Positions 9,891 through 47,638 of a stretch of 64,000 nucleotides of DNA are shown piece after piece. Position 1 is the stretch's first letter. Every line of letters begins with the position of its first letter. The notes below the pieces were generated by a model. It worked only from the letters and a program-made list of their open reading frames with translations, did not search any database and had not been told where the DNA came from. Source of the stretch: Candidatus Latescibacterota bacterium (GTDB lineage Bacteria; Latescibacterota; UBA2968; UBA8231); the NCBI GenBank assembly GCA_965203355.1, contig OZ241889.1:1056001-1120000 (forward strand). The letters run 5' to 3'. Both the position numbers and the translations under genes were made by a program.

Positions 9891-10065
9891 TTACCGCTTG
9901 CCGCGCCAGAGTCGGCCACTGCCGTAAAACGCCTCGTCTTTCATCTCTTTGAGCTTTTCGCGCTGCTCGCCGGTCAAGACGTTTTCCAAAGCCGTGCGGT
10001 GCTTTTGGCGCATTCCGCGCATCTCTGTGCGGTGCTTTTGGCGCAATTCCTTGAGCTTTTTGATG
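9891..10065 (-). pseudogene. 5'-truncated Spy/CpxP (LTxxQ)-like fragment
   Basis: Open frame SIKKLKELRQKHRTEMRGMRQKHRTALENVLTGEQREKLKEMKDEAFYGSGRLWRGKR* with no signal peptide or convincing start; ends just before the terminator. Confidence 0.45.
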
Positions 10066-10470
10066 CTATTTATTCCGGTGCGTTTTGATTTTTTGGTGCC
10101 GCTCGCGCCAAGGTCCCATCAACTCCCCAAAGCGTCGCTGCCGCCGATCTAGCCGCCTGAGTTGCTCCTCAGACAACAAGGGGGCCAGCTCGGCCCGCGA
10201 CGCATCCAACTGTTCCTTTAATTCTTCCCGATGCTTGGCGTTGAGTTCGCGGAGCGCGGCGGCGTATCGCCGCAGCACGGCCCGCATGGCTTGGCGTTGC
10301 TCTTCGTCCTGCGGCGCGAGCAACCGCTCGGTGCTGCGGACAAAATGGCGGGGATGCGGAATGGGCCGCAGGCGGTCGCGAACGAACCACCCGGAGAGCA
10401 GCGTCCCGATCAGTACGCCGATGAGCAGGGTACTGAAGAGAATGAGTGCGCCTTTAGTTTTCCCTCGCAT
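10066..10470 (-). CDS. Membrane-anchored helical periplasmic protein (heavy-metal-sensor/Spy-like)
   Basis: N-terminal TM segment, helical body, LSEEQ motif; third gene of the sigma/anti-sigma operon. Confidence 0.6.
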   Translation of the reverse strand: MRGKTKGALILFSTLLIGVLIGTLLSGWFVRDRLRPIPHPRHFVRSTERLLAPQDEEQRQAMRAVLRRYAAALRELNAKHREELKEQLDASRAELAPLLSEEQLRRLDRRQRRFGELMGPWRERHQKIKTHRNK

Positions 10471-10471
10471 A

Positions 10472-10882
10472 TCACCTGTCCAAGACGTATGCCGCTTCGG
10501 GTGTGGCCGGCACGGCGGCGAAAATTGCGGCGAGGAACGAGGGGTCGTCGCCGATGAGTTCGCGCTCGTTCCAGTTGCTCAGCGCCAAAAAGGCGACCAC
10601 GGCGATGGCGACTGGGGCCAAGGGGCGAAAGAGCCACACGAGGGCATCGGTTAGGCTTTCTTCGCGCTGGCTTTTGACGCGCTGCGCAACGCGCATGGCA
10701 AAGAACGGCCGGAACGAGTCGGCGCGGCTTTCGCGCAGGAGGCCGCTGACTTTTTGCAGGTGTTCCCATTCGGCGCGGAACGCGTCGTCGGTAGCTAGGG
10801 CACGCTCGAATGCCGCGTGCTCGCTCGCGCTCAATTCGCCGGCCAGCGCCCGTAGCATTTTGCTGCGATAGCTGTCAGTCAT
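10472..10882 (-). CDS. Putative anti-sigma factor
   Basis: GELSASEHAAFERAL N-terminal ASD-like helix plus one TM segment; overlaps the sigma stop. Confidence 0.7.
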   Translation of the reverse strand: MTDSYRSKMLRALAGELSASEHAAFERALATDDAFRAEWEHLQKVSGLLRESRADSFRPFFAMRVAQRVKSQREESLTDALVWLFRPLAPVAIAVVAFLALSNWNERELIGDDPSFLAAIFAAVPATPEAAYVLDR

Positions 10883-11444
10883 ATAGGTCCTCGTCTTTGA
10901 GGAGGGTCGCTAGTTTTTTCATGCCGCGTGCGAGCCGCGAGAGCACCGTGCCCTCGGCGATCTCCAACAGCGCGGCCGTTTCCTTGGTCGAATAGCCCTC
11001 GATCATCCGCAGCACTACCACCGCCCGGAAAGCTGGTTTGAGTTGGTTGAGGGCCGCTTGTACTGCTTGCGCTCGCTCGTGCGTGGTCTGTTCGTCGCGG
11101 CCATCGACGCTCGGCTCGGCGGGCCGGGCCTGTTCGTCGTCGCGGCTCCAGAAGCGCAAACGCTGTCGCTTGCGGCGCGCTAGCGCGTTGAGCGAGAGGT
11201 TGATGGCAATGCGCGTCAAATAGGTGCCCAGTGCTGCGTCGCCGCGAAACTTGTCCAGCGATTGGTAGAAGCGGACAAAGGTTTCCTGCCCCACGTCGTC
11301 GGCCTCGTCGCCCCGCCCCAACATGCCCACGACCACGGCGGCCACTTGCGGCTCATAGCGCTCGATTAGGATGCGCCAGGCCGCTTCGTCGCCAGTGCGC
11401 GCTCGGTCGATCAGGGCGCGGTCTGTGCCCGCTTGCTCTGCCAT
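10875..11444 (-). CDS. ECF RNA polymerase sigma-70 factor
   Basis: DRALI..ARTGD..AW, ADDVGQETF, YLTRIAINL, EGYSTKETA.LL....GTVLSRLARG; ATG 11444 chosen. Confidence 0.9.
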   Translation of the reverse strand: MAEQAGTDRALIDRARTGDEAAWRILIERYEPQVAAVVVGMLGRGDEADDVGQETFVRFYQSLDKFRGDAALGTYLTRIAINLSLNALARRKRQRLRFWSRDDEQARPAEPSVDGRDEQTTHERAQAVQAALNQLKPAFRAVVVLRMIEGYSTKETAALLEIAEGTVLSRLARGMKKLATLLKDEDLYD

Positions 11445-14675: not shown

Positions 14676-15959
14676 GTGCATATACTGACGCTGGGAATCA
14701 ATCACCGCACCGCGCCGGTGGAAATCCGCGAGCGGCTGGCCTTCCTCGAAAGCGACCAGCCTTCGGCCTTGGCTCGGCTTGTCGGCGACTACGGGCTGCA
14801 CGAGGCCGCGATTCTCTCAACTTGCAACCGCTCTGAGCTGTACTTGGCGGCCGATGGCGACAGCGGGCCGGCCCAAGTGCGCCGCTTCCTCGCCGAGTGC
14901 CAAGGCGTAGATGTCGCGACGCTTGAATCCCACTTCTACCAACTCAACGACTCAGACGCGGCCGTTCATCTTTTTCGCGTTGCCAGTGGCATTGACTCCC
15001 TCGTCGTCGGCGAGTCCCAGATTCTCGGGCAAGTGCGCCGCGCATTGGAAATGGCCCAGCAAAACGGCTCGGCGCGTCTGTTGCTCAACGAGCTTTTTCA
15101 GCGCTCGTTGCGCGTGGGCAAGCGCGCGCGCGCCGAAACCGATATTGGCCGCGGCCGGCTGTCGATTAGCACGGCTGCGGTCGCGCTGGCGGGCCAGGTT
15201 TTTGAAAACATGACGGGTTGCTGCGTACTCTTGGTCGGCGCGGGCGAGATAGGTGCGCTCACGGCCCAGTACTTGGTTGACTATGGCGTTGAGCGGCTCT
15301 TGGTCAGCAGCCGCACTTTTGCCCGCTCCGAGTCGCTGGCCAGCCAGTTGAGCGGCGAGGCCGTGCCTTTTGCGGAATTAGCTACCCAGCTCGCCGCGGT
15401 TGACATCGTCATATCGGCGACCGCGGCCACGGATTACGTCATTCGGTCCGCTGACTTGCGTCGGGCTATGGAGCAACGCCGAGGACGCCCGCTGTTTCTC
15501 ATCGATATTGCGGTGCCGCGCGACATTGACCCGGCCGCGCGCGACCTCGACAACGTCTTCCTGTTTGACGTGGACGATCTCGAACAAGTGGTTGCTGCCA
15601 ACCGCCAAGAGCGCGAGGGGGAAATCCGCTGTGTGCAAGCCATTATCGACCACGAGCTAAAGGAGTTTTTGCACTGGTTTAATGCCTTGGGAACTGGCCC
15701 GCTAATCCGCGCTTTGCGCGCGCGCGCCGCGCACCTCCAAGAACAGGAACTCGCGCGCTGGGCCGCCCAACTCGGTCCGCTCTCGGCGGCCGAGCGCCAG
15801 CTCGTGGAGGGCATTTTGCGCGGTTACGCCAATAAGCTCCTGCACGATCCGCTCGTGCAGATCCGCGAATTCGCCAACGATGACGAAGGCTACATCCGCC
15901 TCGATACGGTGCGCCGTCTCTTCCGGCTCGACGACGAGGCCGGGAAAAAAGACTCGTGA
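14676..15959 (+). CDS. hemA: Glutamyl-tRNA reductase
   Basis: GINHRTAPVEIRE, LSTCNRSELY, HLFRVASGIDSLVVGESQILGQV, GAGEIG, IDIAVPRDID; GTG 14676. Confidence 0.95.
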   Translation: MHILTLGINHRTAPVEIRERLAFLESDQPSALARLVGDYGLHEAAILSTCNRSELYLAADGDSGPAQVRRFLAECQGVDVATLESHFYQLNDSDAAVHLFRVASGIDSLVVGESQILGQVRRALEMAQQNGSARLLLNELFQRSLRVGKRARAETDIGRGRLSISTAAVALAGQVFENMTGCCVLLVGAGEIGALTAQYLVDYGVERLLVSSRTFARSESLASQLSGEAVPFAELATQLAAVDIVISATAATDYVIRSADLRRAMEQRRGRPLFLIDIAVPRDIDPAARDLDNVFLFDVDDLEQVVAANRQEREGEIRCVQAIIDHELKEFLHWFNALGTGPLIRALRARAAHLQEQELARWAAQLGPLSAAERQLVEGILRGYANKLLHDPLVQIREFANDDEGYIRLDTVRRLFRLDDEAGKKDS

Positions 15960-16768
15960 CGACGTTCTGCATTGTCTCCCTCGTCATGGCCTTGGCTTTT
16001 TACTTGGCCGCCGCCCTGCTGTATCAAGGGCACTTCCTCTGGCATAAGGGCAACTGGGACGCGCTGGGGCGCAAGAGCCTGAAGTTGGGCTTGGCCGTAC
16101 ACGCGATCAGTATCGCGCTGCACTTCGCGCTTTCCGGCCAAGCCCTCTTCGCCAATATGATGGTGATTATCGCCTCGCTGGTCATGGCTTTAGTCGTAGC
16201 CGGCTTGCTCGGCGAGCGCTATGCGCGCATTCGCCACTTTGGCTTGCTGACCGCGCCCCTTGCCTTTCTCGGCTTGCTCTATCCGCTGCTGCTGCCCGTC
16301 CGCTTTGCGGAGGCCGAATCGATCCTCGTGGAGTATCCCTTCCTCGGCATCCACGTGGTGCTAACGCTGCTGGGGCACGTGGGTTTCGCCTTGGCGTTCT
16401 GCTCGGCGGTCGGCTACCTCGTCCAACATCAAGCCTTGAAAAAGGGTCGGCTCAACAGCTATCTGCCCGCACTCGACACGGCGGCGGCGGCGACCTTTCG
16501 CTTTGCGGGCGGCGGTTTTTCGCTCTTTACCTTGGGGCTGGGCATGGGTGCGATTTGGTTTTTTGGTGCGCCGGGCGCACACCTCGCGGGCGGAGATACC
16601 AAAATCTGGCTCGCCCTGCCGACGTGGTTCGTCTTTGGTACCTATCTCTATTTGCGCGGCATTGGCCGCCGGCACGGTCGCCGTCTCAAGTGGTTGGTGA
16701 TTGCCGGGTTTGTGCTGGGTCTGATCAATCTGCTGTGGGTGCGCCACGATTTCGTCAATTTTGTCTAG
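15956..16768 (+). CDS. ccsA: Cytochrome c assembly protein (CcsA/HemX-like)
   Basis: About 8 TM segments with conserved His (GIHV), G..GAIW, DTKIW; overlaps the hemA stop. Confidence 0.75.
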   Translation: MTTFCIVSLVMALAFYLAAALLYQGHFLWHKGNWDALGRKSLKLGLAVHAISIALHFALSGQALFANMMVIIASLVMALVVAGLLGERYARIRHFGLLTAPLAFLGLLYPLLLPVRFAEAESILVEYPFLGIHVVLTLLGHVGFALAFCSAVGYLVQHQALKKGRLNSYLPALDTAAAATFRFAGGGFSLFTLGLGMGAIWFFGAPGAHLAGGDTKIWLALPTWFVFGTYLYLRGIGRRHGRRLKWLVIAGFVLGLINLLWVRHDFVNFV

Positions 16769-16956: not shown

Positions 16957-17313
16957 ATGTCCACTCCACAATCCGCTCCCGAAATCTCCATCCGCGATGT
17001 TTTGCAGCAGATCGACCATCGCCTGAGTCTCATCGAGATGGATGTGCGCGAAAACAATGCCAAGATCGATGCGCTCAATAGCGAGCTCACAGGCAAGATC
17101 GTTGCGCTCGACCGCGAAAATAATGCCAAGATCGATGCACTCAATAGCGAGGTCACAGGTAAGATCGATGCGCTCGACCGCGAAGTCGCCGGCAAAATTG
17201 AAGTTGAAATACGCGAGCTGCGCCGCGAGTTCAACAACAAGTTTAGCTTGGTTATCGGTTTGGTCATCACTTCTTGGCTATCGATGATGGCTACGCTGCT
17301 CTTCAAATTGTAG
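16957..17313 (+). CDS. Small coiled-coil protein with C-terminal TM anchor (CCDC90/DUF1640-like)
   Basis: 11-residue repeats (NAKIDALNSE/TGKIDALDRE) then FSLVIGLVITSWLSMMATLLFKL. Confidence 0.65.
   Translation: MSTPQSAPEISIRDVLQQIDHRLSLIEMDVRENNAKIDALNSELTGKIVALDRENNAKIDALNSEVTGKIDALDREVAGKIEVEIRELRREFNNKFSLVIGLVITSWLSMMATLLFKL
17047..17196 (+). repeat. Intragenic 66-bp tandem repeat (about 2.3 copies)
   Basis: CGCGAAAAYAATGCCAAGATCGATGCRCTCAATAGCGAGSTCACAGGYAAGATCGWTGCGCTCGAC twice plus a partial copy. Confidence 0.8.
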
Positions 17314-24436: not shown

Positions 24437-24531
24437 TGGTTATCAATAGAGTGGAGTAAAACACTATGGGGCGATCTAGACATTGCCCTTGACTTTTTTT
24501 GGTCTATATTTGGTCCGAAAAGGAGGTGCCT

Positions 24532-24807
24532 ATGAAACTGTCCAGCCAGATTAAGCCGATCAGCTATCTCAAGGCCCACGCCGCTGAGATCGTGCGCACA
24601 CTTGGAGATCAACCAGAACCCTTGATTATCACTCAAAATGGCGAAGCCAAAGCGGTCATGCAGGATATAGACAGCTACGAGCAGATGCAGGAAACAGTTG
24701 CATTGCTCAAGATTCTCGCGCTGGGTAGCCGGCAGATCGAAGCAGGTCAGGTGCAGCCCGCCGCCGATGTCGTCGCCCGGCTCCGGGAGCGGCCACGGGA
24801 TCGCTGA
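24532..24807 (+). CDS. Phd/YefM family antitoxin
   Basis: IKPISYLKAHAAEIV, PLIITQNGEAKAV; RBS AAGGAGG. Confidence 0.88.
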   Translation: MKLSSQIKPISYLKAHAAEIVRTLGDQPEPLIITQNGEAKAVMQDIDSYEQMQETVALLKILALGSRQIEAGQVQPAADVVARLRERPRDR

Positions 24808-25133
24808 TGGCTTGCTTGGTTCAGTTGACTGCTGACGCAACGCGCGATTTGGAGGAAATATGCGATTCCATCGATCGGCATGATGTGCCGGGTCGGGCGG
24901 CTTATGTGCTGGAGCAGATTGAGCAGGCTTTCGGCCGCCTTTCTGAATATCCCGAGCGGGGAAACTACCTGATGGAACTGCTGGACATTGGCATTCGGGA
25001 ATACCGCGAGATATTCTCCAAACCCTACCGCATCATCTATCGGATAATAAAAAATAACGTCTATGTGCTCTTGATCGCCGATGGACGACGCGACATGCAG
25101 ACGTTGCTACAGCGGCGCTTGCTGTGGGCGTAA
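24807..25133 (+). CDS. RelE/ParE family toxin
   Basis: DATRDLEEI, YPERG, YRIIYRI, VYVLLIADGRRDM; TGATG coupling to the antitoxin. Confidence 0.88.
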   Translation: MACLVQLTADATRDLEEICDSIDRHDVPGRAAYVLEQIEQAFGRLSEYPERGNYLMELLDIGIREYREIFSKPYRIIYRIIKNNVYVLLIADGRRDMQTLLQRRLLWA

Positions 25134-25165: not shown

Positions 25166-25320
25166 CATAAGTCGCGCTCCCGACCGATCCCGTTCAGATC
25201 GTCGAGGCTGTAGTTGAATACGACTTACTGGGCGTAGAGGTAGCCTCAGCTAAAAGTGCTCATGTACTGGGCGACGGCGAAGGATAAGGCCAAGCAGCAA
25301 GCGAAGATGATGCGGATTAT
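25166..25320 (-). pseudogene. Decayed secreted-protein gene downstream of WYL-type promoter copy 2
   Basis: Frame reads I(ATA)IRIIFACCLALSFAVAQYMSTFS*GYLYAQ*VVFNYSLDDLNGIGRERDL*: signal-peptide-like start with ATG>ATA and in-frame stops. Confidence 0.35.
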
Positions 25321-25344: not shown

Positions 25345-25392
25345 AACTTAGCCCACAGGTGCGACAGATCGCGTCGCAGGCGGAAAATTTTT
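25345..25392 (-). promoter_or_regulatory. Putative WYL-activated promoter, copy 2 (TGCGAC-N7-GTCGCA; TGTCGC-N10-TAAGTT)
   Basis: Palindrome at 25360-25378; -10-like TAAGTT at 25350-25345; 31/36 identical to 28952-28987. Confidence 0.7.
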
Positions 25393-26338
25393 ATGGCCGA
25401 ATCAAGTGCTCGACAAGTTCTAGTGCATCCACCGGCCAATAGCACGCTGGGCGAGGTTGATGGACATTGGGGTCTCCTTCCCTTGGTCGGCAGTTCAAGA
25501 GCCGGTCCACCCACCGCTCGGGGATGGCTTCTCGTCCATGCAGTGCGCCCAGCAGTGCGCCGCAGATGGCGGCGTTGGTGTCGGTGTCGCCGCCCCTGTG
25601 GACGGTATCTACGACAGCTTCCTCGAGATTCTCGGCGTGGAGCAGTTGCCATAGCGCGTTTTGGAACGCCGTCAGAACCAAGCCCTGTTCGTGCATATAA
25701 TCCGGCGGTGAAGTGATCGCGCTGTCGATGGCCGACATGAGCGTCGGTGCCGCTGGAATATCCGCGGCCCAGATCTTTATCTGTTTGTACAGCTCTTGGG
25801 GGCCGCATCCGGTGCGGACCGCGCAGGCAATGGCCGAAGCATAGAGCGAGTTGGCTTGCTGGCAGACCGGATGGGGATGCGTGAGTGCCGCGTCCTCGCA
25901 CGCCCATGATGCCACTTGCTCTAATTCGTAGTTAGCGCCGAAGATGCCCAGCGGGCTGATCCGCATCATGGCTCCGTTCGCTTGGCTACACTGATCGCGT
26001 TCACCTTGGAGGCCGCGGCGAATGGTGGTGCCGTAGTCGAACGGCTCAGAGTTGAACCAGCCGACATAAGCATCACGGGCAAGTGTTGGATCGTATCTGT
26101 TGTGTTGCGCCAGCACTCGGGCTAGGGCTAGCGCCATTTCGGAATCGTCCGTTGGTTGCCCGGCGATCGTGTTCCAAACCTCGCTGCCCTCGAGGTCGCG
26201 GACTCCGGCGGGGTGCTCGAACTGAATATCCTCGGGGCTTTGAAATTCCACTTGGCTGCCCAGCGCATCCCCGGCAAGTTGGCCCAGCAAGCAACCTTGA
26301 GCGCGCGCGAGGGTGTGGTCTCTTTCGCATATAGTCAT
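25391..26338 (-). CDS. ADP-ribosylglycohydrolase (DraG/ARH family)
   Basis: GCLLGQLAGDALG, PTDDSEMA, ANGAMMRISP, LTHPHP, GGDTDTNAAICGALLG. Confidence 0.92.
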   Translation of the reverse strand: MTICERDHTLARAQGCLLGQLAGDALGSQVEFQSPEDIQFEHPAGVRDLEGSEVWNTIAGQPTDDSEMALALARVLAQHNRYDPTLARDAYVGWFNSEPFDYGTTIRRGLQGERDQCSQANGAMMRISPLGIFGANYELEQVASWACEDAALTHPHPVCQQANSLYASAIACAVRTGCGPQELYKQIKIWAADIPAAPTLMSAIDSAITSPPDYMHEQGLVLTAFQNALWQLLHAENLEEAVVDTVHRGGDTDTNAAICGALLGALHGREAIPERWVDRLLNCRPREGDPNVHQPRPACYWPVDALELVEHLIRP

Positions 26339-26341
26339 TTA

Positions 26342-28411
26342 TCAAAAACCCATTTTGCGTGAATGATTCGGCTTAGCTTCGCACTCGGCGCACAGCAATT
26401 CTGCGAGCGCCTTGGCGTCTTGCAGGTGGCCGAGGATTTCGGCTTTGCGGCGGACTACGGCGAAATCACCTGGGGTCAGAGTGGAGAGGTCGCCGATTGC
26501 AGGCGGAGCTTCGAGCGCGAAATAGGTGTGGAACGCCGCTTGCGACTGGTCGGGGGTGAGATAGTCGAGCGCGATTTTGAAGGTGAAGCGGCGCAAGGTG
26601 GCCGGGTCGAGGTTTTCGCCGAAGTTGGTCGTACAGGCAAACGGCAGGGGGTGGCTCTCCATCCAAGTCAGCATTTCGTTGACTTGGCTGACTTCCCAGG
26701 AACGCACGGCACCGCGGCGGTCGGCGAGCAGGGAGTCGGCCTCGTCAAAGACGAGAATAGACTTTTCGGCACGTGCTTCGGCAAAGGCCGCGGCGATTCG
26801 CTGTTCGGTTTCGCCGACCCACTTGGACAAGAGGTCAGAAGCCCGCTTGTGGGTGACTTGGAGGCCGAGGCGTTCGGCTAGGTAGCGGACGAATGCGCTC
26901 TTGCCGGTGCCGGGCGGACCTTGCAGGCAAAGAGAGAAGTTCTGGCCGCTGGTTTTTGCGAGGCGATCCGCGAGTTGGACCGGGTCGGTATCGGCTTGGA
27001 CTAGGGCGAGGTCGAATCGCTCAGGAGGCCCCTGATTTGCGGGGGGCTTCTCGCCCACAATCACTTTGGCCAAACTGCGGACGCCGAGGCGCACTGCGGT
27101 GAGGTCGCCGCCGCAGAGGCCGGCCGCGGCGATGGCCCCAGACGCTACGCCAGGTGTCACATCGAATTCCTTGGCGAGGGCGTGCGTATCCGCGTCTGTC
27201 GCCTTGATGTTGCGGCGCGCCAACTCCCGTTTCCAGATACGCGCCCTAACTTGGGGCGGCGGCTTGCGCAACTCTAGGGCAAAGGTCATGCGGCGTAGGA
27301 GGGTGGCACAGGTTTGCCTAGCGGAGTTTGAGGTCCACAGCGTGGGCACGGGTGCGCGTTCTAGCACCCGGTTTAGGAATACCTTGGAACCGCCGGAGTG
27401 GAGCGTGGAGTAGCGGCTTGGGGCAAAGGGTATCCAGCCTGGATCTGAAAGTAAGTCCTCCATTTCGTCGAAGAGCAGGATTGACCCACGGCCCGACGCT
27501 AGCAAGCGCTGGGTGAGCCGAAGTTCTCGAAGACGCTCTTCCCGGTCGAGCTCGCGAATTCGCTCGTTCTCTTCGCCGACAGTATAGAGGTTCGCTTCGA
27601 GCCGGGCGGCCAGCGTCTTGCAAAACTCGGTCTTGCCGGTTCCCGGCGGGCCGTACACCAAGATATTTACGCCCGGTGTGCCTGCATCCAGTGCGCCTTT
27701 GAGCATTTTTTCGATATGATTGCGTTCCTCTGCTACGTGATCGAAATCCGCCCACGCTAGCTCGCCCGGGGCCGCCGTGTCGAGCAGTAGGCGACACACG
27801 TCGAGATCGCTATCGCCTGGGGCGGAGACCAGCCGTAGCAGTCGCTTGGCGAAGCCGATATCTCCGTCGTTATCGACTGACACAAGCCCGAATTCCACAA
27901 GCGGTGCATCAGCCGCGAAGCGGGCGCGGAATGCACTGCCCGATAGGCCGAGCAGGCAGGGTAGGACCGGCTCCATGACATTGAAGAGTCGATGTCTGCG
28001 TATAGCTCGCAAAGAATCGCCCAAATCCTCAAAGATCGGCTGGGTTTCGCAGCGAATCCACAGCTCTACGAGCGCGAGGTCGGTCGGCGCGAGGTCCATT
28101 TCCCGCTCAAGCCGCTGGATTTGTCGCGCTATGCGGTCTTTTCGCGTCTTTTTACGAGCCGCTACGCACTTTTTGTACTCTTTTTCGATAACCTCCCGCA
28201 GGACCTTCCAATCCCGGGCGGACAATCTCTTTTTGTCACGGCAGTGCTTCCATAGGTCGCTCAGCACCTCGTTCCCGTCACCGAGCGCGAGGATGTTTTG
28301 GTTCTGGGCGAGCCAACTAGCTAATGCCGTCTGTTCGGGGATGTGGTGGAAGCGCGAGACGGCGTTGGAAAGGTAAAAGAGAAGAAGCTGTCGTTCGTAG
28401 GCGTTGAGCAT
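26342..28411 (-). CDS. Tandem (double) AAA+ ATPase with helical/wHTH-like N-terminus
   Basis: Walker A GPPGTGKT with Walker B LLFDEMED; second GPPGTGKS with LVFDEADS; TTN, LDPATLRRF; terminal MGF. Confidence 0.9.
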   Translation of the reverse strand: MLNAYERQLLLFYLSNAVSRFHHIPEQTALASWLAQNQNILALGDGNEVLSDLWKHCRDKKRLSARDWKVLREVIEKEYKKCVAARKKTRKDRIARQIQRLEREMDLAPTDLALVELWIRCETQPIFEDLGDSLRAIRRHRLFNVMEPVLPCLLGLSGSAFRARFAADAPLVEFGLVSVDNDGDIGFAKRLLRLVSAPGDSDLDVCRLLLDTAAPGELAWADFDHVAEERNHIEKMLKGALDAGTPGVNILVYGPPGTGKTEFCKTLAARLEANLYTVGEENERIRELDREERLRELRLTQRLLASGRGSILLFDEMEDLLSDPGWIPFAPSRYSTLHSGGSKVFLNRVLERAPVPTLWTSNSARQTCATLLRRMTFALELRKPPPQVRARIWKRELARRNIKATDADTHALAKEFDVTPGVASGAIAAAGLCGGDLTAVRLGVRSLAKVIVGEKPPANQGPPERFDLALVQADTDPVQLADRLAKTSGQNFSLCLQGPPGTGKSAFVRYLAERLGLQVTHKRASDLLSKWVGETEQRIAAAFAEARAEKSILVFDEADSLLADRRGAVRSWEVSQVNEMLTWMESHPLPFACTTNFGENLDPATLRRFTFKIALDYLTPDQSQAAFHTYFALEAPPAIGDLSTLTPGDFAVVRRKAEILGHLQDAKALAELLCAECEAKPNHSRKMGF

Positions 28412-28438
28412 GGTTTCTCCCTCGAAATGACGCGGTGC

Positions 28439-28909
28439 TTACTGCGATACTAAAATCGCTAGATCGACATCTACTCCATCAAAAAGCGACTCTATCGCAA
28501 TACTTAAGAGAACCCTGTTAGAATCTACGATTAGGAGAGAGCCTTCGCCGACGACGAGGAACGGCGTCTCCAACTCGTCCTGTTCGGGTATGATCGATAC
28601 CGCAGATATTATGAGATAGTCTAGCGGCATGTATGCTACTGCGTCCGGTCCGAGGTGGGTGAGTGCTGTCTTGAGATAAAGGGCTTGGAAGGTTGTGGGC
28701 GTTATCCGTTCATCCTCAATGAAAATATCGCCGTCCTCGTCATAGAGGGAACGGGATAGTTGCCGCTCGATGATGATTCCTCCTCTGGGCGGCCCGGTTT
28801 CTCCCTGTGGCCCTTGCGGTCCGGCTGGTCCCATCGGTCCGGCGGGACCTTCGCAGGCGACAAGGCCGAAGGCCAACATAGCTGCTAAAAAAGAAAAGCG
28901 AGTAAGCAT
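28439..28909 (-). CDS. Collagen-like lipoprotein
   Basis: Lipobox LVAC (Cys19) followed by 7 Gly-X-Y triplets (GPAGPMGPAGPQGPQGETGPP); RBS AAGGAGG. Confidence 0.8.
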   Translation of the reverse strand: MLTRFSFLAAMLAFGLVACEGPAGPMGPAGPQGPQGETGPPRGGIIIERQLSRSLYDEDGDIFIEDERITPTTFQALYLKTALTHLGPDAVAYMPLDYLIISAVSIIPEQDELETPFLVVGEGSLLIVDSNRVLLSIAIESLFDGVDVDLAILVSQ

Positions 28910-28939
28910 TGCACACCTCCTTTTAGTTGTGGTAAAGGA

Positions 28940-28987
28940 AACTTATTTAGGAGGTGCGACAGATCACGTCGCAGACAGAAGTTTTTT
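28940..28987 (-). promoter_or_regulatory. Putative WYL-activated promoter, copy 1 (TGCGAC-N7-GTCGCA; TGTCGC-N10-TAAGTT)
   Basis: Palindrome at 28955-28973; TAAGTT at 28945-28940; about 30 nt upstream of the lipoprotein ATG. Confidence 0.72.
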
Positions 28988-29262
28988 TAGAAAAAGATCA
29001 ATTTTCGTCAAAATCGTCCGCCTGACTGCGCTTGCGGCACGGCAAGGGATTACCGGACGAATTTGCCGAGAGGAGGGGGCTTGGGGTGCGCTTTTGAGAA
29101 GCAGGTTGATAGGGCGGAATAAAGAAGAGCCGTACTCGTCGAGGCTACGGAGTTGGGGTTTTTGGGGCGGGCATGTTGTGCCACTGATACGTCTATATGC
29201 GATCGGTGGGGACTTCTTGGCTATGATGTATGCAAAGGATGAGTCATAGAGTCTCACCGCCA

Positions 29263-29448
29263 CTATTTGTCGAATGCCGTATCGAGCCCCTCGATTCCTG
29301 CGTGGATCAGCATGCGTACAAATTCTTGGCCATTAATCAAAGTGACGCCGTGTAAGTTGGCCTTCTTCTGGCAACACTCGGTAAAGTCTTTGCATGTCGA
29401 AACGACCCAAGAGACCTTGGAATATCCGTCGCTCTGTAATCCACTTAA
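29263..29448 (-). pseudogene. C-terminal remnant of an Mrr-like restriction endonuclease
   Basis: Startless frame ...SKVSWVVSTCKDFTECCQKKANLHGVTLINGQEFVRMLIHAGIEGLDTAFDK* resembles the end of Mrr_cat (hhhT..FT..A...A....hxLIdG.eh..ll). Confidence 0.45.
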
Positions 29449-29479
29449 TTAAACGCAATCCGTCATCCATCTGACAGGA

Positions 29480-30469
29480 TCACGTCGCTCCTTCATCCAA
29501 TCCCAGCACCGCTCGCATCTCCTCCCGCACCGCCTCCCGCAATTCCTCCGGCTCCAGTACCTCAGCCACCGCCCCAAAGCTCAACACCCAACTCTTGATT
29601 TCGTAGAACCCCCCGGCCCGCAGTCGCAGCACCACCCGCCCGTCGTCCAACTCTTCCAATTCTTGGCTCGGATGCCAAATCCGTTCCCGTATGTACGGTG
29701 CTTGCTGCTCGGTGAACCGAATTGCCACATCCATTGGCTCCTCAAGCGAGACGCCGAACGCATTGCTTACCTGCTCATCAACCGACAGGTGATCCTGCGG
29801 CTCAAACTTCTCCTCGGTCACTTCTACCGACTCAAAGCGATCCACCGCCTGCGTGATGAGCTGGTCGTAGTAAGGCACCCGTGAGATTGCGTATAGACCG
29901 CCTCGGTGAGGCATGAGGCGCAGTGGTTCTATATGGTACTGCCGGGCACTCTCGGCCCGTGGCGCGCGGTAGCTCACCCAACAAACGCGGCGTTCCAATA
30001 TGGCGTCGTGCAGGTTCTCGAGTATCTCGCATACATCTTCATAAGGCTTGTACCCGCGGGTGAGTGGCACATACGCCTCTGCCGCACGCTCTAGGAATCG
30101 CCGCATTTCCGAGGGCATGGCCTGAGTCAGCCTGCGAATCGCCGACCGCAGGTGCGCGCCAAATGGGGTGCCTACCAACCCCATGCCCGCCTGCTCGGCG
30201 AAGATCATCGCCGTGATTTCCATGATCGGAAAGTTTAGTGGCAGCTCGGGGTCTTTCAGCAGTTGGTAATAGATGCGCCGATCGACTGGCAACTTTTTCA
30301 TCAGAAACCCTATCGCGCGCAGGTCTTCCAAATCGCGTTGTATGGTGCGTCTATTTACTTTGTACTCGTCCGCCAGCTCGGGAACGCTTATTCCGTAATG
30401 ACGCGCTTGCATCGTCCGCAGGATGTCCAGTTGTCGCACAATCTGCTTCATCGAATCAGCCTTTATCAT
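29480..30469 (-). CDS. HTH-WYL-WCX transcriptional regulator (PafB/C, DriD, BrxR/CapW-like)
   Basis: wHTH ELADEYKVNRRTIQRDLEDL, WYL-like IEPLRL...GGLYAI, WCX ERIWHPSQ...SWVLSFG..AEVLEP.ELR. Confidence 0.92.
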   Translation of the reverse strand: MIKADSMKQIVRQLDILRTMQARHYGISVPELADEYKVNRRTIQRDLEDLRAIGFLMKKLPVDRRIYYQLLKDPELPLNFPIMEITAMIFAEQAGMGLVGTPFGAHLRSAIRRLTQAMPSEMRRFLERAAEAYVPLTRGYKPYEDVCEILENLHDAILERRVCWVSYRAPRAESARQYHIEPLRLMPHRGGLYAISRVPYYDQLITQAVDRFESVEVTEEKFEPQDHLSVDEQVSNAFGVSLEEPMDVAIRFTEQQAPYIRERIWHPSQELEELDDGRVVLRLRAGGFYEIKSWVLSFGAVAEVLEPEELREAVREEMRAVLGLDEGAT

Positions 30470-46460: not shown

Positions 46461-46789
46461 AGGATAGTGGTCAGTGGCCGGTGGCCAGTGGCCAGTCCAC
46501 GCACCGCCCCCTGATAGTGGTCAGTGGCCGGTGACCAGTGGCCAGTCCCGCCCCGGCCCCTGATAGGGCGGGGAAACTGATCACTGATCGCTGACCACTG
46601 ATCACTAACCACTGACTACTGATCACTGATCGCTGACCACTGATCACTAACCACTGACTACTGATCACTGATCGCTGACCACTGATCACTAACCACTGAC
46701 CACTAACCACTGACCACTGACCACTGATCACTAACCACTGACCACTGACCACTGACCACTGACCACTGACCACTGACCACTGACCACCC
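46461..46789. repeat. Heptanucleotide tandem/inverted repeat array (CAGTGGY arms plus about 30 x ACCACTG variants)
   Basis: Two approximately 50-bp AGTGGYC units, then about 214 bp of ACCACTG/ATCACTG/ACCACTA; the arms are reverse complements. Confidence 0.92.
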
Positions 46790-47638
46790 TTGTCGCAACT
46801 GAGCGCGTTTTTCCTGCTACCTCGGCCACTCAACGGCTTAATCACCGCCCTGTCGGTCGGCATTGGTGCTTTGACCGCCGATCAGACCCCCGCTTGGTCT
46901 GCCCTTGTGCTCGCCGCCTTTTCCGCCGCGTTGATAAACGGTGCTGGCAATGCCTTCAACGACTTGATGGACATCGACGTTGACCGCATCAACCGCCCAC
47001 AGCGCCCTTTGCCCTCCGGTCGTCTCAGCCCGAATGCGGCTCGAATGGAAGGTTTGCTTCTCGCCCTAGCTGGCTGTGCGCTCGGGTGCTGGCTCAGCCC
47101 TTGGCACGGGTTGCTCGCCCTAGTCGTCGTCGCCTTGCTCGCCGTCTATAGCATGTCCTTAAAAAACAGCCTGCTGTGGGGCAATGGGCTCGTTGCCGTT
47201 ATCGGGGCTGTTGCCTTTCCCTATGGTGCCTTAGCGGCTGGTGACATAGGGCGCTCGTGGATTCCGGCGCTCTTTGCCTTTCTCTTTCACGTGGGGCGCG
47301 AAATCGTCAAGGACATTGAGGACGTGGCCGGCGATCAAATCCGCGGCGCGCGCACCTTGCCCCTGTGTTGGGGGCGGCCCCAAGCCGGGATGCTGGCGGC
47401 CCTCGTTTATTTGGTTTTGGTCGGTTTTACTTGGATGCCGTTTTTCATGGGCTTCTACGGCGTGCTCTACGCGCTCGCCTTGCTGCCGGTCCATGCCTTG
47501 GTTGGCTACGTCCTCTGGCAATTGTATCGCCAACGCGCTGTGCTGACCGACGACCGCCTCGGTCGCTTGCTCAAAGTCGGCATGTTCTTGGGGCTTGTGG
47601 CCGTTGTCGTCGGCGAGGTCGTCTTTGCTATGGGTTAG
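46790..47638 (+). CDS. UbiA prenyltransferase (DGGGP-synthase-like)
   Basis: RPLNG, NAFNDLMDIDVDRINRPQRPLPSG, REIVKDIEDVAGD. Confidence 0.85.
   Translation: MSQLSAFFLLPRPLNGLITALSVGIGALTADQTPAWSALVLAAFSAALINGAGNAFNDLMDIDVDRINRPQRPLPSGRLSPNAARMEGLLLALAGCALGCWLSPWHGLLALVVVALLAVYSMSLKNSLLWGNGLVAVIGAVAFPYGALAAGDIGRSWIPALFAFLFHVGREIVKDIEDVAGDQIRGARTLPLCWGRPQAGMLAALVYLVLVGFTWMPFFMGFYGVLYALALLPVHALVGYVLWQLYRQRAVLTDDRLGRLLKVGMFLGLVAVVVGEVVFAMG

Follow-up and report, generated by a model that had tools for sequence, protein, structure and literature searches.

The locus and its two box copies

We analysed a window of 64,000 nucleotides (nt) from the chromosome of a Candidatus Latescibacterota bacterium (contig OZ241889.1) and focused on a duplicated 36-nt element that lies behind the gene of a WYL-domain regulator. 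The regulator gene (29480..30469, minus strand) encodes a winged helix-turn-helix (wHTH)-WYL-WCX protein (Pfam HTH_11, WYL, WCX), the predicted binder of the element. After a 570-nt gap, and likewise on the minus strand, it is followed by an operon of three genes: a collagen-repeat lipoprotein with a lipobox and then G-X-Y repeats (28439..28909), a 689-aa AAA+ ATPase (26342..28411; Pfam AAA and IetA-like PADLOC hits), which is the core cargo, and, as the last gene, an ADP-ribosylglycohydrolase (ARH; 25391..26338; Pfam ADP_ribosyl_GH, E = 1.4e-63). One copy of the element (copy 2, 28952-28987) precedes the lipoprotein gene. The other (copy 1, 25357-25392) begins at the ARH stop codon, which sits inside the A-tract of the copy 1 module, and is oriented toward a convergent Phd/ParE pair.

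The original prediction, made from the sequence of the window, had described a match of the two copies at 31 of 36 positions, a shared TGCGAC-N7-GTCGCA palindrome and a minus-strand TGTCGC-N10-TAAGTT arrangement with a differing spacer, and all of this was confirmed on the sequence. The window contains the exact palindrome just twice, at 25360-25378 and 28955-28973, whereas 0.01 matches were expected from shuffled sequences, none of which (0/100) reached two. With up to two mismatches allowed, the window contained six matches versus 5.4 expected, so that the other four relaxed matches are at chance level. Read along the gene strand (minus), each copy has TGTCGC and TAAGTT separated by 10 nt (25345-25366 and 28940-28961). 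In a pairwise alignment of the copies, about 50 nt were kept (an A/T run, the palindrome and CCT), six bases were wholly different and TAAGTT was again identical. Outside these 50 nt, the 300-nt flanks showed similarity at the random level, and the longest run identical between the copies was 14 nt. Since the functional pieces are kept and the filler between them is free to vary, the pair does not resemble a young duplication that drifts uniformly.

Copy 2 consists of an operator box with an exact palindrome, the predicted site of a WYL dimer (28955..28973, minus strand), and, 9 nt past the box, the -10 hexamer TAAGTT (28940..28945, minus strand). Relative to the predicted transcription start of the lipoprotein operon (near 28932-28934), the box would span about -40 to -22. 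Upstream of it lies a conserved 5' extension (28974..29060, minus strand) with an A/T tract beside the box and GACGA-N4-GACGA farther away; the homology to modules that front different cargo genes starts near 29060, and the 5' extension was seen in the contexts of the related sites described below. The box of copy 1, which belongs to a module that we call class B, is exact as well (25360..25378, minus strand), and its TAAGTT hexamer (25345..25350, minus strand) stands where orthologs have TAATGT or GAATGT at an equal offset.

A decayed third box (29470..29489, minus strand) lies over the stop codon of the WYL gene, at a place where 16 related loci (18 sites) hold an intact box. Its left half carries one mismatch, its spacer a 1-nt insertion and its right half two mismatches, and no -10 hexamer follows. 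We propose that this box at the regulator's own stop codon decayed together with a loss of cargo. The gene pair that follows the WYL gene in relatives (a 185-229-aa protein and a PD-(D/E)XK nuclease) is absent from the window. The roughly 410 nt that separate the copy 2 module from the WYL gene (29061-29472) contain no remnant of the genes found at this place in relatives and have no homolog in any of the 43 related loci.

Recurrence of the box behind WYL genes in related genomes

The regulator has many homologs, with 45-86% identity. An alignment of 40 sequences (the window protein and 39 homologs) was the basis of a profile search of genome contigs, which yielded 43 loci (827,501 nt), all of them from metagenome-assembled genomes labelled Latescibacterota or Gemmatimonadota and none identical to the window. 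We divided them into 23 ortholog loci (L001-L022 and L042; 68-86% identity) and 19 paralog loci (L023-L041; 42-49% identity), while L043 holds a 42-residue fragment. All box counts given here cover the 64-kb window and these 43 loci around WYL relatives.

With at most one mismatch, the palindrome was found 67 times in the 43 loci, versus 0-7 times in each of 10 shuffles. Ortholog loci account for 63 of the matches (0-7 per locus), and 21 of the 23 have between one and seven; the sequence of L008 stops at the WYL gene, and L019 has no box. The boxes all lie downstream of the WYL gene and in one orientation, with a sole exception beside a WYL gene fragment in L042. Within 10 kb upstream of the WYL gene, no box was found in the loci save behind a second WYL copy (L002) or beside the fragment in L042. 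In 16 loci, 18 boxes overlap the WYL stop codon, the last codons and TGA lying within the left half-site and spacer. Upstream of the regulator, the order DUF5069 - peptidase C26 - WYL is kept, and the region downstream is variable; in several loci it ends at DUF4143 ATPase, metallophosphatase and radical-SAM genes, as it does to the left of the window island.

Two loci hold two WYL copies each, L002 (1210-2187 and 10013-10990) and L011 (10001-10987 and about 15000-16008). Each copy ends in a box and heads its own cassette array, that is, regulator and array were duplicated in tandem, and the second copies head separate arrays; the window locus has one WYL gene. In L019, a frameshift splits the WYL gene (9986-10961) into open reading frames (ORFs) of 144 and 194 aa, and its C-terminus no longer encodes a box. 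No box was found in the 10 kb downstream of it, an anecdotal case of co-loss of the regulator and its sites.

The paralog clade shows a similar layout. In 18 of the 19 paralog loci, (C/T)GAC-N7-GTC(G/A) lies within about 130 nt past the end of the WYL homolog, and nAnnnT follows at the equal 9-nt distance in 18/18 of these sites. In three paralog loci, the site is an exact ATACGAC-N7-GTCGTAT, the published consensus of the WYL activator DriD, and two more are hybrids. Large AAA+ proteins are encoded after the paralog WYL gene (identified by Pfam for two, 929 aa in L041 and 962 aa in L036), and nucleotide similarity to the AAA gene of the window was found in 16/19 paralog loci. Because this layout is common to both clades, the arrangement of regulator, box and AAA gene is older than the clade split.

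A separate observation in L023-L041 (at about 10960-11060) is a GC-rich hairpin with a T-run, which follows the -10 hexamer within 1-2 nt and looks like a terminator for the WYL gene. If transcription began 6-8 nt past the -10 hexamer, the RNA would lose part of the 5' arm of this hairpin; speculatively, the promoter may start within the terminator and bypass it in this way.

Promoter geometry

For the geometry, we used a set of 65 sites from the 23 ortholog loci and the window (53 perfect palindromes and 12 with one mismatch). Exactly 9 nt past the palindrome, in gene orientation, a hexamer TAnnnT was present at 44/65 sites and nAnnnT at 57/65. No site (0/65) had TAnnnT at +8, +10 or +11, and none had it at +9 in the reverse orientation; eight TAnnnT matches at offset 12 are TAATATCTT sites that were counted twice. 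The hexamers seen include TAAGTT, TAATAT, TAAATT, TAATGT/GAATGT and TAGGTT, and the 9-nt fillers ahead of them fall into unrelated sequence classes (e.g. cctcctagg, cctgtgggc and ggagttcag). When the sites were read by eye, neither a -35-like hexamer at 16-18 nt spacing nor a TG extension before the -10 hexamer was found, and a scan for the sigma-70 consensus on the gene strand between 24400 and 30700 returned no -35/-10 pair. An ORF follows most of the sites, and at about half of all 65 a Shine-Dalgarno-like sequence stands ahead of it.

Several features around this core were seen in addition. The operator spacer (25366-25372 and 28961-28967 in the window) contains GATC at 58/65 sites, and the window encodes a Dam-family adenine methyltransferase (PF05869; 54968-55582, plus strand). 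About 40-60 nt upstream of the box, GACGA-N4-GACGA (28990-29030, minus strand; an equivalent is found in the loci) reads on the opposite strand as CGTC words that resemble half-sites, and may represent a weak additional site for the regulator or an UP-like element. Two RNA structures were considered and rejected. For the 5' extension as an intrinsic terminator, the fold of the single sequence gave z = -1.86, but the 17 modules compared have no conserved structure: their consensus fold reached -2.4 kcal/mol with 0 compensatory pairs. A hairpin in the 5' untranslated region of the lipoprotein gene that would hide the Shine-Dalgarno sequence was no better than shuffles (z = 0.56).

The regulator protein

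A phmmer search of the regulator against PDB chains returned five sequences, all of them constructs of one protein. We infer this protein to be DriD, as its residues fit the numbering of the published description (PMC10853764) with an offset of four. With the family profile, 11 PDB hits were obtained at E ≤ 0.01: the five putative DriD chains (E = 2e-20), four of PafB/PafC or the PafBC complex (1e-9) and two named generically 'Transcriptional regulator'. On this identification, DriD is the closest relative with a solved structure, and neither BrxR nor CapW is named among the 11 hits. The profile aligns positions 6-318 with chains 9pfq and 8tp8, and the domain order (wHTH, three-helix bundle, WYL, WCX) fits.

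In the phmmer alignment, the RRTxxR motif of the window protein falls on Arg36, Arg37, Thr38 and Arg41 of DriD. Across the 40 aligned homologs, which cover both clades, T42 and R45 are invariant and R41 is at least 90% conserved. Equivalents of the DriD pocket residues Y168, R189 and Y192 are also present in the window protein, as judged from the alignment.

Genes and remnants at the two copies

Behind copy 2, the lipoprotein gene has a real ATG at 28909, 46 nt from the box, with a strong Shine-Dalgarno sequence. The protein is 78% identical to its ortholog in L003. Used as a query of the protein atlas, it matched unnamed or collagen-family clusters only, and NCBIfam has no family for it or for several other cargo proteins.

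The original prediction had placed both copies ahead of starts of the signal-peptide type. This holds for copy 2, whereas behind copy 1 only a pseudogene was found, a remnant of a secreted beta-barrel-like protein (25183..25320, minus strand). By tblastn, residues 1-50 of the 202 residues of the ortholog align to 25320-25183 with 72% identity, and the signal-peptide remnant is detectable at the protein level only. Its frame reads HIIRIIFACCLALSFAVAQYMSTFS-stop-GYLYAQ-stop-VVFNYSLDDLNGIG..., i.e. it contains two in-frame stops, and in place of the GTG with which the orthologs start it has ATA. Of about 200 codons, about 50 are left before the gene is cut off, its homology stops near 25184, and a 660-bp Phd/ParE unit starts at that point. 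What copy 1 would drive is an outer-membrane-protein gene that is truncated and dead. In the window, no counterpart of the DnaB-like cargo of related islands was found.

The adjoining toxin-antitoxin pair (Phd/YefM-ParE, 24499-25133, plus strand) belongs to a unit of about 660 bp that was found in at least 10 related loci at differing positions with 86-90% identity, in L003 upstream of the WYL gene and in L002 between the two arrays. These varied positions indicate that the unit moves within or around the island. An 11-mer common to the regions near 25200 and near 29140 was considered as a possible target-site duplication; near 25200 it lies inside the coding frame of the pseudogene, and near 29140 it resembles the far 5' part of modules elsewhere.

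Other genes of the window, such as hemA, hisS and RND efflux genes, are those of ordinary chromosome, and the GC content is 60%. Pfam detected neither an integrase nor a recombinase across the window and the arrays, and one IS1595 transposase was seen in L013. Scans of the window for tRNAs and Rfam families found nothing, hence no tRNA-linked island border and no known RNA. Elsewhere in the window we observed a long 7-nt-periodic repeat array with 14/21-nt spacing (46534-46820) within an ORF (46471-46863) that has an ice-binding-like beta-roll match, and three to four 33-nt tandem repeats (17047-17198) within an unannotated ORF.

Cargo and cassette variability

Two classes of modules recur in the arrays of the ortholog loci. 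Class A boxes, which are like copy 2, stand ahead of orthologous lipoprotein genes in 11 loci (L002, L003, L006, L007, L009, L012, L014, L015, L020, L022 and L042). The third gene of this operon, which follows the AAA gene, encodes ARH in the window (25391-26338), L002 and L014 and an REase-ARP-type nuclease in L003 (17857-18627) and L012 (16815-17594); this alternation suggests that the two are interchangeable effector partners of the ATPase. A literature search on 'REase-ARP' found nothing.

Class B modules, which are like copy 1, front a secreted protein of 198-202 aa with a weak match to outer-membrane beta-barrels. Where the downstream ORFs were mapped, a protein of 447-452 aa comes next, shown to be DnaB-like for L003 (450 aa); its counterpart in L002 is 727 aa long and fused to a PhzF domain. 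In L003, L011 and L013, a class B module lies directly ahead of a DnaB-like ORF, which Pfam confirmed for L003. At 9264-9650 of L042, the ORF behind a class B module is a chimera: its first residues match the secreted protein and the rest of it the DnaB N-terminus, which points to a deletion that fused the two genes.

The remaining modules front PD-(D/E)XK nucleases and uncharacterised proteins, and the arrays also hold MBL-fold, Schlafen-like and AbiE genes. PADLOC hits were confined to IetA-like AAA, PDC-S26 and AbiE. Blocks of homology start near the 5' end of the module (about 29060 in the window) and end at gene ends, and the content and order of the cassettes vary between genomes, so that modules may mark the boundaries of exchange between cassettes. 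Over evolutionary time, cassettes are clearly gained and lost.

Proposed mechanism and alternative explanations

We consider it probable that the boxes are the operator and -10 cores of WYL-dependent promoter modules of the DriD/DdaA type. Such a module would comprise an A/T-rich upstream tract, a 19-bp operator, 9 nt and a -10 hexamer, with no -35 element. A homodimer of the adjacent wHTH-WYL-WCX protein would bind the operator, two recognition-helix arginines of each subunit reading the guanines of CGAC/GTCG. The bound dimer would lie over the would-be -35 element and assist the housekeeping RNA polymerase in initiation, the role that DriD has in Caulobacter and DdaA in Acinetobacter. Copy 2 would drive the lipoprotein-AAA-ARH operon. 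Copy 1 would formerly have driven the secreted beta-barrel gene and then, judging from the mapped relatives, a DnaB-like helicase gene, where a truncated pseudogene now remains.

Our confidence differs between the parts of this proposal. That the WYL protein is the binder of the boxes appears very likely from sequence comparison, and that the modules act as active promoters appears likely on similar grounds. As to the mode of regulation, we lean toward activation and not repression, because a -35 element and an extended -10 are lacking and the invariant register is common to three characterised activators. The original prediction saw in the boxes sites at which the WYL protein binds and activates, together delimiting a local regulon of promoter-carrying cassettes. 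This idea gains support from the recurrence of the box, the fixed -10 register, the layout in the paralog clade, the apparent kinship with DriD and the conserved arginines that in DriD read CGxC.

Several observations weigh against the proposal. Even with up to two mismatches allowed, the window has no box ahead of the WYL gene or the DUF5069-C26-WYL operon, whereas the motif is reported in the own promoter of 68/69 alphaproteobacterial DriD homologs, with AT-rich spacers in 66/68 (PMC10853764). Of our 65 sites, 21 deviate from TAnnnT, and 8 do not fit the looser nAnnnT either. Their spacer is not AT-rich; it is conserved as G(C/T)GATCT (GCGATCT at 30/65 sites, GTGATCT at 17/65 and GATC at 58/65), and, compared with the AT-rich and barely contacted spacers of DriD, this suggests that another constraint or another protein may act there. 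The strand on which DriD has its effector contacts Arg204, Trp206 and Arg207 aligns with ITQAVDRF in the window protein, with no basic residue there in either clade, so that the inducing signal may not be single-stranded DNA. The site counts are inflated by shared ancestry, many sites being orthologous promoters of related genomes. Finally, copy 1 is still perfect though its gene is dead.

The alternative that we take most seriously, while still regarding it as unlikely, is that the WYL protein acts on the box as a repressor, keeping weak constitutive promoters shut until it is released by a signal, in the manner of BrxR and CapW. The described WYL regulators of defence islands, BrxR and CapW, do repress (PMC9122601, PMC11662680), the cargo resembles that of a conflict island (PD-(D/E)XK nucleases, IetA-like AAA, AbiE, Schlafen-like and ParE/Phd genes), and a dimer bound at about -40 to -22 could exclude the polymerase. 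Yet promoters with no -35 element and no TG extension should be weak unaided, and a distance between box and hexamer that stays invariant across unrelated spacers and two clades is expected of an activator that contacts the polymerase and is not needed for a roadblock. The operator of BrxR also differs, with 11 + 5 + 11 bp and a position downstream of the promoter, and BrxR and CapW are missing from the names of the PDB hits. It is improbable that the boxes are operators of another transcription factor to which the WYL gene is a mere neighbour, a reading under which the conserved GATC spacer and the 5' extension, neither of which is explained by the known contacts of DriD with DNA, would find a place. 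Against it stand the fit of half-sites and spacing to the family consensus CGxC-N7-GxCG, the boxes over the WYL stop codon in 16 loci and behind the paralog gene in 18/19, and the lack of any other regulator gene conserved in the arrays.

We regard it as more improbable still that the repeat is a structural or mobile element in place of a promoter, be it a repetitive extragenic palindrome, a terminator hairpin or a recombination site for the excision of cassettes. The perfect 6+6 inverted repeat would suit such an element, as would the varying content and order of cassettes, the homology blocks that begin and end at modules and the various placements of the ParE/Phd unit. The repeat, though, has just two copies in 64 kb, both beside the WYL gene, and in the loci it occurs only in arrays behind WYL genes; its orientation and -10 register are fixed, and on neither strand is the stem directly followed by a T-run. 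Phage records gave no match, and plasmid records gave matches to coding regions only (AAA-type and one unrelated gene). The original prediction had also suggested that the direct repeats could let the 3.6-kb unit excise or shuffle, an idea left without support by a longest identical run of 14 nt and the lack of a nearby recombinase. An array of the integron kind is opposed by the same lack of an integrase and by a 5' extension without conserved structure. A chance similarity, or a functionless relic of one duplication that is decaying, has in our view a close to negligible probability. Copy 1 does serve a pseudogene, as such a relic might, but the expected number of 0.01, the retention of box and hexamer while the 6 nt between them differ completely, the 63 further copies in related genomes and the fixed -10 register all contradict it.

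More tentatively, and with doubt prevailing, we suggest that the module of about 150-190 bp (5' extension, A/T tract, operator and -10 hexamer) is a portable, self-contained WYL-dependent promoter that travels with incoming genes or is captured by them, which would make the region behind the regulator a plug-in hotspot. If true, a newly acquired nuclease, ATPase or membrane-protein cassette would at once come under one common signal. The arrangement would amount to an integron-like system of one regulator and many interchangeable cassettes, without an integrase, with an activator in place of a common upstream promoter and with the first module welded to the regulator's own stop codon.

The analysis yields a testable regulon for Latescibacterota, with a 19-bp site, a defined protein and cargo that now has one common predicted signal. 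The cargo so grouped includes an AAA ATPase with ADP-ribosylglycohydrolase or nuclease partners, PD-(D/E)XK nucleases and a DnaB-like helicase. For annotation, copy 1 points to a gene that is dead, and the island that follows the regulator varies between genomes. More generally, the DriD/DdaA operator CGxC-N7-GxCG and its exact -10 register, which equals the -26 register of PafBC, are extended to an uncultured phylum and two diverged clades, and we argue from this that the geometry is an ancient and general property of WYL activators.

Comparison with known WYL systems

Closest to the window system is DriD of Caulobacter crescentus (promoters didA, bapE, CCNA_03891, recJ and dnaG), likewise a homodimer-type wHTH-WYL-WCX protein with a CGAC-N7-GTCG site, whose base-reading arginines are conserved in the window protein. 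The palindrome of this type named in the original prediction agrees with the printed site, ATACGAC(X)7GTCGTAT (PMC13004042). This site overlaps the -35 position at a constant distance to the -10 element of promoters without a -35 element, as the window boxes do, and its consensus is given as CGxC(X)7GxCG, with guanines read by Arg37 and Arg41 (PMC10853764). In the promoter oligonucleotides listed in the Methods (PMC13004042), our own reading finds GGCGCA-N9-CAAGGT, GTCGCA-N9-CAATCT and GGCGCA-N9-CAAGCC; CAAnnn thus lies 9 nt past the proximal half-site, a register equal to that of the window boxes. The window system differs from DriD in the outer bases, which are TG...CA and not ATA...TAT (the paralog clade has the DriD form), in a spacer that is conserved and contains GC where those of DriD are AT-rich, and in boxes that form a tandem array behind the regulator, whereas DriD boxes are scattered over the genome. 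The arginines of the effector pocket also appear, by alignment, to be absent here, and the phylum is another, Latescibacterota.

DdaA of the Moraxellaceae (Acinetobacter) is a WYL activator of damage-response and anti-phage genes with the motif CGWCA-N5-TGWCG (PMC12392091), and its CGxC-N7-GxCG frame is the same as that of the window box. The likeness to DdaA is one of motif and published description, and its regulon is genome-wide (recA, ssb, uvr, CRISPR-Cas and restriction-modification genes), unlike the local array described here. SiwR of Mycobacterium smegmatis is a homodimeric WYL activator of the adjacent operon, which it controls through a 19-bp imperfect palindrome between -35 and -10 (PMC10693628). 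It shares with the window system the adjacent target and the length of the palindrome, but has a single target operon of DinB-like genes, in contrast to up to seven modules with diverse cargo. R204 and R207 of SiwR, mutated in the WYL-domain variant of that study, are absent from the window protein.

The mycobacterial PafBC promoter form cited in the original prediction matches the printed consensus, tGTCgg(N10)tA(N3)T, a -26 element in promoters without a -35 element (PMC8635444). The proximal half-site and hexamer found here, tGTCgc(N10)tAnnnT, have identical spacing and likewise no -35 element. PafBC is, however, a heterodimer of PafB and PafC that uses a single non-palindromic -26 element and cannot bind DNA without polymerase, whereas here a full second half-site lies 7 nt upstream in every copy and the locus has a single WYL gene. 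Like BrxR and CapW, the window regulator is encoded ahead of a variable island of conflict-type genes that runs in the same direction. Those proteins are autorepressors with an operator in their own promoter or just past it (for BrxR, inverted repeats of 11 bp with 5 bp between them, downstream of the promoter; PMC9122601), whereas here no box lies upstream of the regulator.

Literature searches on WYL proteins of Latescibacterota and on WYL activators in defence islands turned up no account of this system. Switches of this type are already known from DriD, DdaA and SiwR; the clustered, modular organisation seen here is unusual.

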